This document shows positions 3,371-58,739 of a stretch of DNA of 64,000 nt, piece by piece. The position numbers were made by a program, and so were the translations under genes. This DNA is from Escherichia coli (lineage in GTDB: Bacteria > Pseudomonadota > Gammaproteobacteria > Enterobacterales > Enterobacteriaceae): assembly GCF_030013595.1 (NCBI RefSeq), contig NZ_CP122768.1; one strand, given 5' to 3'. Position 1 is the stretch's first letter. Every line of letters starts with the position of its first letter. Under the pieces are notes generated by a model, which was not told where the DNA came from, did no database searches, and saw only the letters and a list, made by a program, of their open reading frames with translations.

Positions 3371-4516
3371 ATGACAAATAATGAATGCAAAGGGCCGTTT
3401 GAAGGCTTATTAGTTATCGATATGACACATGTCCTTAATGGACCTTTCGGAACTCAACTTCTTTGTAATATGGGCGCAAGGGTAATTAAAGTTGAGCCGC
3501 CGGGTCATGGTGATGATACCCGCACATTTGGTCCCTATGTGGATGGACAGTCACTCTATTACAGTTTTATTAATCATGGCAAAGAGAGTGTGGTTCTTGA
3601 TTTAAAGAATGATCACGATAAAAGTATATTTATAAATATGCTTAAACAAGCTGATGTATTAGCTGAGAATTTTCGCCCAGGTACAATGGAAAAACTGGGG
3701 TTTTCATGGGAAACGCTACAAGAAATCAACCCGCGTCTCATCTATGCTTCATCGTCAGGTTTTGGGCATACCGGCCCGCTAAAAGATGCTCCAGCCTACG
3801 ATACCATCATTCAGGCAATGAGCGGGATAATGATGGAAACAGGGTACCCTGATGCTCCGCCAGTGCGCGTGGGTACCTCTCTTGCGGATTTATGTGGCGG
3901 TGTCTATTTATTCAGTGGAATAGTGAGTGCACTTTATGGCCGCGAAAAGAGCCAGAGAGGGGCGCATGTCGATATAGCGATGTTTGATGCCACGCTGAGT
4001 TTTCTGGAGCATGGTCTGATGGCATATATTGCGACAGGGAAGTCACCACAACGCCTGGGAAATCGCCATCCCTACATGGCACCTTTTGATGTTTTTGATA
4101 CTCAGGATAAGCCGATTACTATTTGTTGTGGTAATGACAAGCTTTTTTCTGCGTTATGCCAGGCACTGGATCTGACGGAGCTGGTTGATGATCCCCGATT
4201 TATCAGCAATATTTTACGCGTACAAAACCAGGCTATTCTTAAACAATATATTGAGCGAACGTTAAAAACGCAGGCAGCTGAAGTTTGGTTAGCCAAAATA
4301 CATGAAGTTGGTGTGCCCGTCGCGCCGTTATTAAGTGTGGCTGAGGCCATTAATTTGCCACAAACTCAGGCGAGAAATATGTTGATTGAAGCCGGAGGAA
4401 TAATGATGCCAGGTAATCCGATAAAAATCAGCGGCTGCGCGGACCCGCATGTTATGCCGGGAGCGGCAACGCTCGACCAGCATGGGGAACAAATTCGCCA
4501 GGAGTTCTCATCATAA
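3371..4516 (+). CDS. yfdE: Family III CoA-transferase (acetyl-CoA:oxalate CoA-transferase YfdE)
   Basis: Translation MTNNECKGPFEGLLVIDMTHVLNGPFGTQLLCNMGARVIKVEPPG... is CaiB/BaiF family; start chosen at internal ATG of the 394-aa ORF. Confidence 0.8.
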   Translation: MTNNECKGPFEGLLVIDMTHVLNGPFGTQLLCNMGARVIKVEPPGHGDDTRTFGPYVDGQSLYYSFINHGKESVVLDLKNDHDKSIFINMLKQADVLAENFRPGTMEKLGFSWETLQEINPRLIYASSSGFGHTGPLKDAPAYDTIIQAMSGIMMETGYPDAPPVRVGTSLADLCGGVYLFSGIVSALYGREKSQRGAHVDIAMFDATLSFLEHGLMAYIATGKSPQRLGNRHPYMAPFDVFDTQDKPITICCGNDKLFSALCQALDLTELVDDPRFISNILRVQNQAILKQYIERTLKTQAAEVWLAKIHEVGVPVAPLLSVAEAINLPQTQARNMLIEAGGIMMPGNPIKISGCADPHVMPGAATLDQHGEQIRQEFSS

Positions 4517-17453: not shown

Positions 17454-18701
17454 ATGGCACTGAATATTCCATTCAGAAATGCGTACTATCGTTTGGCATC
17501 CAGTTACTCATTTCTCTTTTTTATTTCCTGGTCGCTGTGGTGGTCGTTATACGCTATTTGGCTGAAAGGACATCTAGGATTAACAGGGACGGAATTAGGT
17601 ACACTTTATTCGGTCAACCAGTTTACCAGCATTCTATTTATGATGTTCTACGGCATCGTTCAGGATAAACTCGGTCTGAAGAAACCGCTCATCTGGTGTA
17701 TGAGTTTCATTCTGGTCTTGACCGGACCGTTTATGATTTACGTTTATGAACCGTTACTGCAAAGCAATTTTTCTGTAGGTCTAATTCTGGGGGCGCTCTT
17801 TTTTGGCCTGGGGTATCTGGCGGGATGCGGTTTGCTTGACAGCTTCACCGAAAAAATGGCGCGAAATTTTCATTTCGAATATGGAACAGCGCGCGCCTGG
17901 GGATCTTTTGGCTATGCTATTGGCGCGTTCTTTGCCGGTATATTTTTTAGTATCAGTCCCCATATCAACTTCTGGTTGGTCTCGCTATTTGGCGCTGTAT
18001 TTATGATGATCAACATGCGTTTTAAAGATAAGGATCACCAGTGCATAGCGGCGGATGCGGGAGGGGTAAAAAAAGAGGATTTTATCGCAGTTTTCAAGGA
18101 TCGAAACTTCTGGGTTTTCGTCATATTTATTGTGGGGACGTGGTCTTTCTATAACATTTTTGATCAACAACTCTTTCCTGTCTTTTATGCAGGTTTATTC
18201 GAATCACACGATGTAGGAACGCGCCTGTATGGTTATCTCAACTCATTCCAGGTGGTACTCGAAGCGCTGTGCATGGCGATTATTCCTTTCTTTGTGAATC
18301 GGGTAGGGCCAAAAAATGCATTACTTATCGGTGTTGTGATTATGGCGTTGCGTATCCTTTCCTGCGCGTTGTTCGTTAACCCCTGGATTATTTCATTAGT
18401 GAAGCTGTTACATGCCATTGAGGTTCCACTTTGTGTCATATCCGTCTTCAAATACAGCGTGGCAAACTTTGATAAGCGCCTGTCGTCGACGATCTTTCTG
18501 ATTGGTTTTCAAATTGCCAGTTCGCTTGGGATTGTGCTGCTTTCAACGCCGACTGGGATACTCTTTGACCACGCAGGCTACCAGACAGTTTTCTTCGCAA
18601 TTTCGGGTATTGTCTGCCTGATGTTGCTATTTGGCATTTTCTTCCTGAGTAAAAAACGCGAGCAAATAGTTATGGAAACGCCTGTACCTTCAGCAATATA
18701 G
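17454..18701 (+). CDS. cscB: Sucrose:H+ symporter CscB (LacY-like MFS)
   Basis: 415-aa 12-TMS ORF; downstream of cscK. Confidence 0.85.
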   Translation: MALNIPFRNAYYRLASSYSFLFFISWSLWWSLYAIWLKGHLGLTGTELGTLYSVNQFTSILFMMFYGIVQDKLGLKKPLIWCMSFILVLTGPFMIYVYEPLLQSNFSVGLILGALFFGLGYLAGCGLLDSFTEKMARNFHFEYGTARAWGSFGYAIGAFFAGIFFSISPHINFWLVSLFGAVFMMINMRFKDKDHQCIAADAGGVKKEDFIAVFKDRNFWVFVIFIVGTWSFYNIFDQQLFPVFYAGLFESHDVGTRLYGYLNSFQVVLEALCMAIIPFFVNRVGPKNALLIGVVIMALRILSCALFVNPWIISLVKLLHAIEVPLCVISVFKYSVANFDKRLSSTIFLIGFQIASSLGIVLLSTPTGILFDHAGYQTVFFAISGIVCLMLLFGIFFLSKKREQIVMETPVPSAI

Positions 18702-19142
18702 ACGTAAACTTTTTCCGGTTGTTGTCGATATCTCCATATCCCTCAACCGGAAAATAATAATACAAAAATGCTTAGCCCAACTAATAATCACCTAATCCAA
18801 ACGCCTCATTCATGTTCTGGTACAGTCGCTCAAATGTACTCCGGATACGCGGTTCGCTGATTTCCAGGACATTGTCGTCATTCAGCGACCTGTCCCGAGT
18901 ATCACGGGCCTGCGAATTCATCAAGGAATGCATTGCAGAGTGAAGTATCGAGTCACGCCATATTTCGCTATCAGGATTCTGTATGATGGTTACATCGCCC
19001 GGCCCAGGGCTGTTTAGTCATCAGCGCTTTCTGACAGTGCTGAGATTTCAACCTGTTGCAGTAAAAATGAGTAGATATAGGGCAAGTGTGCTGCCAAACC
19101 CATCTTTTACGGGGTGAAGGTAGATTTGGTTTGAAGGGTATC

Positions 19143-19157
19143 TGGTGTCCCCTGCAG
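19143..19157. repeat. Prophage attL core: 15-bp direct repeat of the argW 3' end (tggtgtcccctgcag)
   Basis: Exact 15-bp copy of the tRNA 3' terminus found at 58665..58679; phage genes lie between the two copies. Confidence 0.7.
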
Positions 19158-19230
19158 ACATCTACTTGAGGCGGCAGGGGATTGATTGGAATGGTGTTTT
19201 TTAGATGTGAAAAATATTTTACCCGCTATT

Positions 19231-19431
19231 TTACCCATTGGCGCGGCTTAAGAGCTTATTTTTGAATTCACAATGGTCACGATATAACCATCTTGCTCGC
19301 CCGTGGATAACTTTGGCTTTTGGCAGGTCGCCGGACTTAATCCGGTCATAGATGAAGGTTTTACCGAATCCAGTATCGGCCATGATGAATTTCAAATCAA
19401 CCAGTGAATCAGGCTGTAGTTCGTGTTGCAT
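19231..19431 (-). CDS. AlpA-family phage transcriptional regulator / putative excisionase
   Basis: 66-aa ORF with small HTH (…LKFIMADTGFGKTFIYDRIKSGDLPKAK…); adjacent to attL. Confidence 0.55.
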   Translation of the reverse strand: MQHELQPDSLVDLKFIMADTGFGKTFIYDRIKSGDLPKAKVIHGRARWLYRDHCEFKNKLLSRANG

Positions 19432-19473
19432 GAGTGCTATCTCCGAATAGGGAATCGAACCTGCAAATCAGGC

Positions 19474-19498
19474 AATAAAAAACCGCCATCAGGCGGCT
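19474..19498 (-). terminator. Rho-independent terminator (minus strand) between the zinc-ribbon gene and the AlpA-like gene
   Basis: GC hairpin aaccgcc/ggcgg followed by a T-run on the minus strand. Confidence 0.5.
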
Positions 19499-19562
19499 TG
19501 GTGTTCTTTCAGTTCTTCAATTCGAATATTGGTTACATTGTTTTAATATATGAATAAATAAA

Positions 19563-19775
19563 TTAGCTTTTTTCGTTGCCTTCGCGTTCTTTATTAATTT
19601 TAACAAACTCGTTTTTACCACGCTCTCCAAATGCGTCTTTAGAGTCGTTGTATCCGCAATCGCAGCACACATAATCACCAGACCATCCACGCATTGTTTT
19701 TTCTTTTGCAATATTTCCAGAACCGCATTTTGGACAAGACATATCACTACCTCCAAAGCATGAGTGAGATGACAA
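19563..19775 (-). CDS. Small zinc-ribbon protein (CPKC...CCDC)
   Basis: 70-aa ORF with two Cys pairs; the overlapping 126-aa ORF in another frame was judged less likely. Confidence 0.4.
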   Translation of the reverse strand: MSSHSCFGGSDMSCPKCGSGNIAKEKTMRGWSGDYVCCDCGYNDSKDAFGERGKNEFVKINKEREGNEKS

Positions 19776-19838
19776 CGTAACATTGATTGGAGATTAACAA
19801 TAGATTGCTGATGTAAAAGATATGTATAAGCTTCGCTT

Positions 19839-20393
19839 TCAAAGTGGAGGCTCTGGTAGCGGCATCCAGTGTGACGGCTCACATACCACCTCAACACCGT
19901 TCATGTAAAAGAATTGAAATAACCCTTTACCTTTGTGAAACCCTACCATCTGCTCTTTTGTGTCTGAACAATAAACCAAAACATCTTCTTCGTTTGGCAT
20001 CCACTCACTACAGCTTATCCAACCATCTGGAATTACCGGAGAGTTGCCCGACATCTCATTCAACTTGTAAGTCTGGCTTACAGGTTTGGCTTCCAGTTCT
20101 GCAATGCGCTTACCTCCATCCGCGATTACTCCCTCGTAATATTCACGCTGCTCGTTGAGTTTTGATTTTGCTTCCTCAAGCTCAACTCTCAGCTTCCCTA
20201 CCGTTAGCGCAATATCCTCGTTCTCCTGGTCACGGCGTTTGATGTATTGCTGGTTTCTTTCCCGTTCATCCAGCAGTTCCAGCACAATCGATGGTGTTAC
20301 CAATTCATGGAAAAGGTCTGCGTCAAATCCCCAGTCGTCATGCATTGCCTGCTCTGCCGCTTCACGCAGTGCCTGAGAGTTAATTTCGCTCAC
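19839..20393 (-). CDS. Prophage early protein, DUF551-like C-terminal domain
   Basis: 184 aa; C-terminal ...PDGWISCSEWMP...HWMPLPEPP resembles the DUF551 family common in lambdoid prophages (recalled). Confidence 0.45.
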   Translation of the reverse strand: MSEINSQALREAAEQAMHDDWGFDADLFHELVTPSIVLELLDERERNQQYIKRRDQENEDIALTVGKLRVELEEAKSKLNEQREYYEGVIADGGKRIAELEAKPVSQTYKLNEMSGNSPVIPDGWISCSEWMPNEEDVLVYCSDTKEQMVGFHKGKGLFQFFYMNGVEVVCEPSHWMPLPEPPL

Positions 20394-33950: not shown

Positions 33951-34025
33951 GGGTCAGTCGTATAAAGGTCATTACGGAAGGCTGTTAACCTTCTTATCGT
34001 GGTTCGAGTCCACGCTGTCCCGCCA
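33951..34025 (+). tRNA. Candidate phage-encoded tRNA (anticodon GTT, Asn-like); atypical D-arm and one acceptor-stem mismatch
   Basis: Manual fold: acceptor GGGTCAG/CTGTCCC, anticodon stem GAAGG/CCTTC with loop CTGTTAA, T-arm CGTGG-TTCGAGT-CCACG, 3' GCCA. Confidence 0.45.
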
Positions 34026-34030
34026 AATAT

Positions 34031-34106
34031 GCTGGTTTAGCTCCAATGGTAGAGCGGTCGCCTTGTAAGCGAATGGGTAGCGGTTCAAGTCCGTTAACCA
34101 GCACCA
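34031..34106 (+). tRNA. Candidate phage-encoded tRNA (anticodon TGT, Thr-like)
   Basis: Manual fold: acceptor GCTGGTT/AACCAGC, D-arm GCTC-CAATGGTA-GAGC, anticodon loop CTTGTAA, T-arm AGCGG-TTCAAGT-CCGTT, 3' ACCA. Confidence 0.5.
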
Positions 34107-57348: not shown

Positions 57349-58539
57349 TTATTCATTTTCATCAAGCCAGTCCGCCCACCACTGCATCATTTCTCTGCGC
57401 TTGTCTAGATACTGAGCATGGTTGTAAATCCCACGCACAGATCCGCCGTTGGCATGTGCCAGTTGCACTTCAATAGCGTCAGCAGGCCATTCGTGCTCGT
57501 TCATAATTGTGCTGAATTCATGCCTGAATCCGTGACCGCTTTCCAGACCCTCATAGCCGATTTGTTTGATCACAAGCAATACCGCGTTCTCGCAGATTGG
57601 CTTCTTCTTATCGTTGCGCCCTGCAAAAACAAACTCTGATACTGGTTTGGTGATGGAGCTTAACGTAGTGAGAAGTTCAACCACCTGGTCTGACATCGGG
57701 ACCACATGAATTTTGCGTCCCTTCATCACGCTGGCGTCGATGGTGATAATCCTGTTTTCAAAATCGACGTTCTTCCATTGCATGGAGCGAAGCTCTTTCG
57801 TTCTTAGGGCTGTATAACGTAAAACTTTTGTCGCAATAAGCGATACGATACTTCCTGAAAATGTTGCCAGTGCTTTGTTGAATGCCGGGATCTGGTCTGC
57901 AGGAAGAAACGGGAAGTTCTTCTTGCGGTATCCTTTCATGGCGTCTGCAAGGTCAGGTGCCGGGTTATATTTAGCCCTTCCGGTGACAATAGCGTAACGG
58001 AAAACCTCTCCGCATCTTCTGCGGGCTTTGTTGGCTCGCTCCATTGCACCGCGATCTTCAAACCTGCGGATTACTTCAAGAAGTTGCATCGGCTCAATAT
58101 CCTGAATTTCAAGACCGCCGATGATGGGTAAAATGTCGTCATCAAACATTTTGGCAAGTTCAGTCGCATACCCTACAGACCAGACTTGCTTCTTGTGCTC
58201 GTACCATTCCTTGTAAATGGCGCTAAAGGAATTGTTGTTAGACGAAGCCTTTTTCGCTTTTACCGGATCGATGCCAACCGAGATGTCTTTCCTCGCAGTC
58301 CATGCTTTATCCCTTGCCTCTTGCAAAGTCATAAGCGGATATTTTCCGACGGTCAGGATTTTCTCCTTACCGTCAATCTTGTAGCGAAGCTGCCATACCT
58401 TTTTCCCGGATACAGGGACATAAAGGTACAATCCATTACCATCGAGAAGGCGGTATGGTTTTTCTTTCGGCTTTGCTGCTTCAATCTGCTTAACGGTGAG
58501 CATGGGTAAAAATCCGGTGGGTAAAATTATTTTATCCAC
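57349..58539 (-). CDS. intS: Tyrosine integrase, P4-type (IntS-like); start possibly at internal Met 58503
   Basis: ...MLTVKQIEAAKPKEKPYRLLDGNGLYLYV... with C-terminal catalytic region (HGFRH ... Y); directly adjacent to argW. Confidence 0.9.
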   Translation of the reverse strand: MDKIILPTGFLPMLTVKQIEAAKPKEKPYRLLDGNGLYLYVPVSGKKVWQLRYKIDGKEKILTVGKYPLMTLQEARDKAWTARKDISVGIDPVKAKKASSNNNSFSAIYKEWYEHKKQVWSVGYATELAKMFDDDILPIIGGLEIQDIEPMQLLEVIRRFEDRGAMERANKARRRCGEVFRYAIVTGRAKYNPAPDLADAMKGYRKKNFPFLPADQIPAFNKALATFSGSIVSLIATKVLRYTALRTKELRSMQWKNVDFENRIITIDASVMKGRKIHVVPMSDQVVELLTTLSSITKPVSEFVFAGRNDKKKPICENAVLLVIKQIGYEGLESGHGFRHEFSTIMNEHEWPADAIEVQLAHANGGSVRGIYNHAQYLDKRREMMQWWADWLDENE

Positions 58540-58664
58540 TTTTTACCCGTCATGGAGTGCGGCTGTCAACGATCTGACGCGAACCATTACGAACTGTGAA
58601 TCTACGGAAGGCTTGATATTCAGGGGATTTTGCGGACTGGTACGGATGGGAGCGAACTGATAAA

Positions 58665-58679
58665 TGGTGTCCCCTGCAG
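58665..58679. repeat. Prophage attR core: 15-bp direct repeat (tggtgtcccctgcag) within the argW 3' end
   Basis: Exact copy of 19143..19157. Confidence 0.7.
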
Positions 58680-58739
58680 GAATCGAACCTGCAATTAGCC
58701 CTTAGGAGGGGCTCGTTATATCCATTTAACTAAGAGGAC
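58665..58739 (-). tRNA. argW: tRNA-Arg (anticodon CCU), argW; prophage attR at its 3' end
   Basis: Reverse complement reads GTCCTCTTAGTTAAATGGATATAACGAGCCCCTCCTAAGGGCTAATTGCAGGTTCGATTCCTGCAGGGGACACCA. Confidence 0.9.

Follow-up and report, generated by a model that had tools for sequence, protein, structure and literature searches.

A T-arm-like copy of argW in the leader of torI, the excisionase gene of a KplE1/HK620/Sf6-type module in Escherichia coli

The question raised by this locus is why a fragment matching the T arm of argW, the tRNA gene that is the integration target of a prophage, should stand a second time ahead of the small gene beside the opposite att junction. The first-pass annotation of the window, i.e., of the whole stretch of 64,000 nucleotides of E. 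coli contig NZ_CP122768.1 under analysis, had proposed that the fragment may have been left by an earlier or tandem integration, or else may belong to an extended att arm.

The recombination module at argW

The prophage is lambdoid, of ~39.5 kb (about 19143-58679), with a lambda-type exo, and the region in question is the RDF end of its KplE1/HK620/Sf6-type module at argW. The features of this module are as follows:

19143..19162, minus strand: att core at the torI-side junction (duplicated 15-mer and conserved inverted repeat)
19217-19224 and 19229-19236, no strand assigned: two direct integrase arm-type repeats, TTTTACCC, located in the sequence
19231..19431, minus strand: torI, excisionase (RDF) of 66 aa, ORF confirmed
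57349..58506, minus strand: intS-type integrase of 385 aa (Pfam Arm-DNA-bind_3, Phage_int_M and Phage_integrase)
58570..58657, minus strand: five TorI-binding pentamers in the intS-side arm (GATCG 58570-74, GTTCG 58580-84, GTTCG 58590-94, GTCCG 58633-37 and GTTCG 58653-57), located in the sequence by comparison with PMC2951348
58665..58739, minus strand: argW, tRNA-Arg(CCU), the integration target (ARAGORN)

The gene nearest the att core had been described as an AlpA-family regulator and not a P22-type Xis, and the latter part of this description is correct. The product of the ORF at 19231-19431(-) is identical at 66/66 residues (E = 6.6e-43) to chain A of PDB 1Z4H, the “Tor inhibition protein”, and its sequence has the winged helix with a long C-terminal helix. 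It falls in PHROG 66 (“excisionase and transcriptional regulator”), and the same gene is annotated torI in RefSeq E. coli genomes. By its sequence, the 66-aa product is TorI, the known excisionase of the KplE1/HK620/Sf6 module. The identical protein has been found by experiment to be an excisionase (RDF) acting with IntS (PMC3509656, PMC2951348) and a winged-helix DNA-binding protein (PMC3509656), and it would be expected to direct excisive recombination with IntS here, as is known for the identical protein elsewhere.

As for the family label, TorI is at most a distant relative of AlpA, given that it scores 12.7 bits (E = 0.12) against the Pfam Phage_AlpA profile, below the cut-off of 21 bits, while E. 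coli AlpA scores 83.9 bits. The BLASTP alignment of TorI with AlpA is weak and covers only 20 residues, over the helix-turn-helix, and there is no NCBIfam model that matches TorI. Like TorI, the AlpA of CP4-57 (PF05930) is a small HTH protein of an element with a P4-type integrase and a tRNA-type site; AlpA acts on intA. On the other hand, TorI is an architectural RDF on att DNA, whereas AlpA is a transcriptional activator in RefSeq, and “AlpA-type” is acceptable for TorI only in the loose sense of some annotations.

The module agrees throughout with its known relatives. Over positions 19143-19560 the identity with the HK620 and Sf6 attP regions is 98-99%, and the records of these phages present hkaC/gene 18 (= torI), attP and int in succession, which is the order that had been foreseen for the circular phage, with a P4-type (Arm-DNA-bind_3) integrase as the last member; the intS-type integrase has the same position here as the int of HK620 and Sf6. 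In comparison with KplE1 (CPS-53), HK620 and Sf6 (IntS, TorI = HkaC/gp18), TorI (100%), the pentamers, the arm repeats, the integrase domains, the gene order and the 15-16 bp core are the same, with no difference at the level of the module. The pentamers of the intS-side arm agree with the experimental description of five TorI sites in two blocks, with the sequences GTTCG/GATCG/GTCCG (Panis et al., PMC2951348). No variation of the TTTTACCC arm-type repeats was seen in an alignment of six modules; the second repeat (19229-19236) overlaps the torI stop codon, and the repeat is found again, as GGGTAAAA, ahead of intS. At least 80% of the window segment 19100-19560 is present in 872 of 5,426 complete E. 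coli genomes (about 16%), which makes the element a common one. The gene, the module, IntS and the att sites were already known, and torI itself adds nothing new.

What differs from KplE1 is the setting, which is here a lambdoid prophage of ~39.5 kb beside a putative cscB, not dsdC. The gene at 17454-18701, left of the prophage junction, appears to encode the sucrose permease CscB, where K-12 has dsdC. The argW-dsd region is known to vary (PMC8787464), and a CscB neighbour would fit. The prophage also encodes a tRNA-Asn(GTT) and a tRNA-Thr(TGT), separated by five bases, at 33951-34106.

The window contains two copies of the 15-bp core, TGGTGTCCCCTGCAG, one at 19143-19157 and one at 58665-58679, and no third; the duplicated core, CTGCAGGGGACACCA, adjoins torI, and intS sits at the argW end. 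In all the relatives, GRTGTN, TGCAGGG and GACACC follow one another in this order, forming an imperfect inverted repeat about a 7-bp centre, and an imperfect inverted repeat round seven bases is the usual layout of a tyrosine-recombinase core. The att core would thus consist of an arm, the 7-bp overlap TGCAGGG and a second arm, with the cleavage positions placed by symmetry only, which on the tRNA-sense strand of the torI-side junction gives a putative C arm GATGTC at 19157-19162, the overlap TGCAGGG at 19150-19156 and an arm GACACC at 19144-19149. The T-loop region of argW at 58679-58689, GGTTCGATTCC, would be the left arm (B) of attB. Every module found targets the core TGCAGGGGACA, and argW is the target of all the relatives found. 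In many of these, the C (left) arm of attP is TTCGATGT, which is T-loop-like, and in the argW of Proteus the T stem differs while the GGTTCGATTCC T loop is unchanged.

An 8-bp inverted repeat, TCCCCTGC / GCAGGGGA (19148-19155 and 19174-19181), surrounds the C arm in the P arm and is identical in six modules; in Edwardsiella (L099) it becomes TCCCTGCA / TGCAGGGA, alongside an altered tRNA acceptor sequence. This co-varying repeat suggests a functional hairpin or an additional integrase site.

A copy of the argW T arm in the torI leader

The torI gene is the final gene ahead of the att junction, with an intrinsic terminator upstream and a 40-nt leader between, which by inspection contains, in order from the terminator, ATTGCCTGAT, a 16-mer, CTATTC, GGAGA, eight bases and the ATG. 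The elements of this leader are as follows:

19440..19444, minus strand: Shine-Dalgarno GGAGA of torI, located in the sequence (GGAGAU is conserved in 26 diverse leaders)
19450..19461, minus strand: conserved leader motif GGTTCGATTCCC, with the invariant core GTTCGATTCC, from leader comparisons
19451..19466, minus strand: full 16-nt identity with argW, TTGCAGGTTCGATTCC, tRNA nt 47-62, an exact match to 58679-58694
19473..19499, minus strand: intrinsic terminator, 8-bp stem and T run, from the terminator scan

The 16-mer, GGAATCGAACCTGCAA, at 19451-19466 is identical to argW 58679-58694 at 16/16 positions and has the same orientation as the argW gene, so that the reported T-arm match is real, although it had been placed at 19453..19468. 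The gap from the core to the 16-mer on the torI side is 293 bp, in line with the earlier estimate of ~300 bp, whereas in argW itself the two are contiguous, with one shared base (G58679). The 16-mer runs from the last bases of the variable loop through the T-stem 5' strand and the T loop to C61-C62, and the tRNA identity of the leader motif stops at C62|T63, which is the predicted arm/overlap boundary; the first 11 bases of GGTTCGATTCCC correspond to T-arm positions 52-62, and its last C differs from the tRNA (T63).

The match is not due to chance, and its explanation as a vestige of integration is not supported. The 16-mer has two copies only in the window, allowing up to 2 mismatches, against 0.05 expected from shuffles, and because the two other tRNAs of the window have GGTTCGAGTCC and GGTTCAAGTCC at the equivalent region, the match is specific to argW and does not reflect a generic T loop. 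The 16-mer is also found inside the phage genomes of HK620 and Sf6, in whose records it lies between the terminator and hkaC/gene 18, and it keeps a fixed place in the RDF leader across genera; the window holds neither a third core nor a further T-arm copy marking a cassette beyond the one past intS. No earlier or tandem integration in this chromosome left the motif behind as a scar. Scars made of tRNA fragments, such as the RefSeq pseudogene pawZ of K-12, which is the 15-bp copy of the KplE1 core at the torI side (L203 1285-1299), are likewise short exact copies of argW in the orientation of the gene, but pawZ is the duplicated core at the junction, whereas the 16-mer is found 293 bp into the phage, moves with the phage genome and is not an integration repeat. 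The 16-nt argW copy upstream of torI in K-12 is without annotation in RefSeq.

Two origins of the arrangement were considered and rejected. One would have the 16-mer and the core as the halves of a single 30-nt argW block, split by the insertion of torI and the P arm; it is contradicted by the attP of many relatives, which keeps its own T-loop-like C arm, TTCGATGT, by the core. The other comprises tandem lysogens, integration at a distal attB copy and aberrant excision, none of which, on paper, gives a T-arm piece upstream of the RDF gene. The junction would arise only if the argW-side site recombined, within one molecule, with a secondary site lying upstream of torI, and a second capture step would then be needed.

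In the relatives, the motif takes the form GTTCGATT(C/T)CC, ~29 nt ahead of the ATG of the RDF gene and ~5 nt ahead of the Shine-Dalgarno. With at most 1 mismatch, GTTCGATTCC is found in 70 of 97 distinct 60-nt RDF leaders, starting at -29 in 64, and there are just 12 other occurrences across 744 kb of the same loci. The genera that bear the motif include Escherichia, Salmonella, Citrobacter, Pantoea, Erwinia, Edwardsiella and Hafnia, among others, and when each species is represented by one genome it is present in 12 of 19 loci (Escherichia, Enterobacter, Citrobacter, Pantoea, Edwardsiella, Leclercia and Phytobacter, with Hafnia as well). It is kept down to an RDF protein identity of 36%, between unrelated flanks, which is not the pattern of neutral decay. 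When 26 diverse leaders are aligned, conservation is 90% or more in the columns of GUUCGAUUcCC and GGAGAU and less than 70% in those of the spacer and flanks, and at least nine different spacer/flank contexts retain an unchanged 10-11 nt core.

Similar results are obtained from phage and prophage records. The torI end of KplE1/CPS-53 in K-12 is near-identical to the window and has the same leader motif, the 16-mer being present in HK620, Sf6 and K-12 KplE1; of 80 viral contigs with an identical TorI, 77 have it intact, and the adjacent terminator hairpin occurs in several alleles among these contigs. In the more distant Erwinia phage Midgardsormr38 (module 76% identical), GGGAATCGAACCTG is found twice, in tandem, while the motif is AGTTCGATTCCC in Salmonella phage g341c (RDF about 50% identical) and GGTTCGATTCCC in Erwinia phage phiEt88 (RDF 36-39% identical); in these three phages, the proximal copy starts ~27-30 nt from the ATG, a few bases 5' of GGAG. 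A run of ten G lies ~35 nt further upstream of the RDF gene than the doubled motif of Midgardsormr38 (L003 2806-2878).

The motif is missing from 27 of the 97 leaders, in some by a clean deletion. Erwinia phage Ehr49 lacks it, as do Klebsiella phage Chronis and those RDF genes of Proteus and Xenorhabdus that, like that of Chronis, overlap the gene upstream, and it is deleted or decayed in some leaders of the Salmonella type. Part of its spread is due to recombination of a mobile leader, because the leaders of two loci (L094 and L103) are nearly identical and their RDF genes only ~45% so.

Judged from this conservation, GTTCGATTCC(C) is shown to be a discrete leader element, the signature being that of purifying selection. 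The motif goes unmentioned in PMC2951348, PMC3509656 and PMC8787464, and a prior description elsewhere is possible; it has no annotation in the HK620, Sf6 and K-12 records. The tRNA-like leader motif is real, strongly conserved and apparently new to description.

The terminator at 19473..19499 closes the upstream early-left genes and is the start of a mosaic “boundary” common to lambda and P22. Because the homology with P22, lambda and HK629 starts at window positions 19469-19473, the motif lies just inside the left boundary of the module. In the P22 record (L205 2207-2227), the same hairpin is annotated as t'I, where an antisense “aI RNA” from a C1-activated promoter has its 3' end. At least three alleles of the hairpin ahead of the torI leader (L006-L085, ~25-45 nt upstream of the motif) were seen, GCCGCCTGATGGCGG, GCCGCATCAATGCGG and GCCGTCATAGAGCG, which differ in both strands of the stem; the last is that of K-12 and looks degraded. 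At 19381-19508, on the plus strand, there is a sub-threshold Rfam match to STnc130 (25 bits), most of which is due to the terminator. Upstream of the terminator, 19563-19775 (-) encodes a 70-aa zinc-ribbon protein (CxxC ... CxxC) of PHROG 2945, of unknown function, with a weak Pfam similarity, below the cut-off, to Lar-like (restriction alleviation) proteins.

Readings of the leader motif

The relatives of the module differ in the DNA sites that their proteins are expected to recognize. The RDFs with the GKTFIY sequence have GTTCG/GTTCT repeats ahead of int, while those of subgroup B (T[AS]KYFYSQI) have RTTACC repeats, with the same 10-bp spacing, by the -35 element of int, which looks like a switch of RDF DNA specificity inside one family. 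RTTACC stands in place of GTTCG in the arm ahead of int at L173, L175, L178, L181 and L087. The arm-type repeats of the integrase also change, from GGGTAAAA in the TorI group to GCGGGCATA in the g341c group. The leader motif remains GTTCGATTCCC across the switches of both RDF site and arm site, and on this comparative evidence it is shown to be independent of the RDF and arm-site specificities, as would be expected if it followed the integration target, which is argW in all the relatives found.

We tentatively favour a reading, possible though short of probable, in which the leader motif is a copy of the left half-site of attB that the integrase reads to control RDF expression. The first 11 bases of the motif are argW nt 52-62, which stand directly 5' of TGCAGGG, itself a predicted overlap; if GGTTCGATTCC is the left arm of attB, the leader holds a copy of that half-site standing on its own. 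Since the motif would equal this half-site, a role with the integrase, as in the extended att arm first suggested, is plausible. Given that the TTTTACCC repeats lie at the other end of the gene, torI is bracketed by a core-type-like site and arm-type sites. The integrase would bind the leader copy via the same domain that recognizes the T loop of argW in attB, and on DNA it might bridge to the two arm-type sites at the torI stop, bracketing the 200-bp gene. Alternatively, it might bind the torI mRNA within the ribosome-binding window. By either route, RDF expression would be kept low while the integrase is present, so that torI expression would be coupled to the presence of the integrase, with the direction of the effect a supposition. 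The more specific proposal that a heterobivalent integrase clamps and silences the RDF gene in lysogens (or blocks translation of its mRNA) via the half-site and the arm sites, in modules with attP between int and the RDF gene, is rather unlikely; under it, the integrase itself would be the missing regulator of the excision switch.

Some points count against the half-site reading. Tyrosine recombinases usually bind a single half-site weakly, and the motif is dispensable, given its absence from 27/97 leaders; its near-fixed distance to the start codon would fit a role at the RNA or ribosome level equally well. On the other hand, the excision switch depends on RDF expression, the control of which is not understood (Panis et al., PMC2951348), and the leader element is a concrete candidate for this unexplained control. 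It is readily open to test by mutation. If the integrase does read the motif, this would represent a new form of cross-talk between its target-recognition surface and the regulation of its directionality factor.

The alternatives place the function of the motif elsewhere, or deny it one. It may act through its primary sequence in the torI mRNA leader, adjusting translation or stability with no involvement of the integrase, whether as a host-factor site, a processing-enzyme site or a weak anti-Shine-Dalgarno pairing of UUCC with GGAG. The position at -29 lies within the 30S footprint, always ~3-6 nt before the conserved GGAGAU, no promoter is predicted in the leader, so that torI would be read through from upstream, and by inspection the GATTTCC variant extends the pairing with GGAG to six pairs. 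However, RNAalifold returned an empty consensus structure for the 26 diverse leaders, the folding of the window leader does not stand out from shuffles (z = 0.13), and no Rfam family reaches its threshold, the best being STnc130 with 25 bits against 55. Pairing to the Shine-Dalgarno accounts for UUCC only and not for the invariant GUUCGA, and an mRNA element leaves 11-16 nt of identity with the target tRNA unexplained; it is unlikely, though it keeps some weight. Self-regulation by TorI through the GTTCG pentamer in its own leader draws on the experimental sites (GTTCG/GATCG/GTCCG, PMC2951348), given that the motif starts with GTTCG, on the similarity of site I1 (GTTCGCTCCC) to GTTCGATTCCC, and on the tandem pair of the Erwinia phage, which resembles an operator array. 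The invariance of the motif across the switch of RDF sites argues against such an operator, since the subgroup B RDFs with RTTACC arm repeats still keep the GTTCGATTCCC leader. GTTCG is followed by A in the motif and by C or T in all the arm sites inspected, the conserved ATTCC extension is missing from these sites, and the Erwinia copies are 16 bp apart, compared with 10 or 20 bp in the arm sites, which makes an operator very unlikely.

A neutral relic would derive from an ancient joining of the left arm of argW to the leader, either illegitimate or through aberrant integrase action, that has hitch-hiked with the mobile “boundary” ever since. The 16-nt tRNA identity (nt 47-62) does exceed the length required of a half-site, and its end coincides with the predicted cleavage boundary; the motif is 3-7 nt from the mosaic boundary common to lambda and P22, the Sf6 record labels the stretch as boundary sequence bsq2, and the type of leader is independent of RDF phylogeny. 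A relic is nonetheless highly unlikely, considering that the 10-11 nt core is constant in at least nine flank contexts while the neighbouring bases vary, and that decayed or deleted versions are a minority. By reasoning only, no simple integration, tandem or excision scheme puts a T-arm piece 5' of the RDF gene, and the block was not divided by an insertion, given that attP retains its own T-loop-like C arm by the core. The HK620 record offers one last alternative, a feature described as “promoter, phage integration” with a cII site, equivalent to window 19438-19476, i.e., a cII-activated promoter like lambda pI, and the Sf6 record marks a possible pI at the equivalent place. The repeat in question is TTGC-N5-TTGC and not the N6 form of a cII-type site, its first TTGC is TTAC in 23/80 contigs and in K-12, and no sigma-70-like promoter passes the scan of 19000-19900. 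The motif is conserved, moreover, in the records of the non-lambdoid Erwinia phages Midgardsormr38 and phiEt88, and such a transcript would also produce the RDF during integration. This promoter is hardly credible as an explanation.

Other recombination modules and argW-targeting elements

The half-site reading may be set beside what is known of other modules. The Xis of lambda is, like TorI, a winged-helix RDF that directs excision and binds to repeated sites within a single att arm, and in lambda the RDF gene likewise ends the early-left operon behind a terminator common to both systems. We know of no attB half-site copy ahead of xis in lambda. Unlike lambda, the int and RDF genes of the KplE1 type are separated by attP and transcribed independently (PMC2951348), and no pI-like promoter is detectable here in 19000-19900. 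The regulation of int by Int and Vis in P4 offers a further likeness, as recombination proteins there also feed back on the genes of their own module, and Vis has been proposed to bind the int mRNA (cited in PMC2951348). This feedback, however, is directed at int instead of the RDF gene and does not involve an attB-like half-site.

Several genomes have a second, tandem island with a different P4-like integrase just past the argW core (L091 ~3420-3470, L097, L098, L106/L195, L155 and L199, downstream of the core). In these islands, GGTTCGAT (or GTTCGAAT, GGTTCAAT) lies between arm-type repeats, ~45 nt before the start codon of the integrase, so that a T-loop-like motif is present in a further family of argW-targeting elements. 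In Proteus (L196-L198 10001-11576), the genes of the integrase and of a TorI-like RDF, 74% identical, are convergent, with the RDF gene overlapping the 3' end of the integrase gene; both are beside argW and, unlike in KplE1, are not separated by attP.
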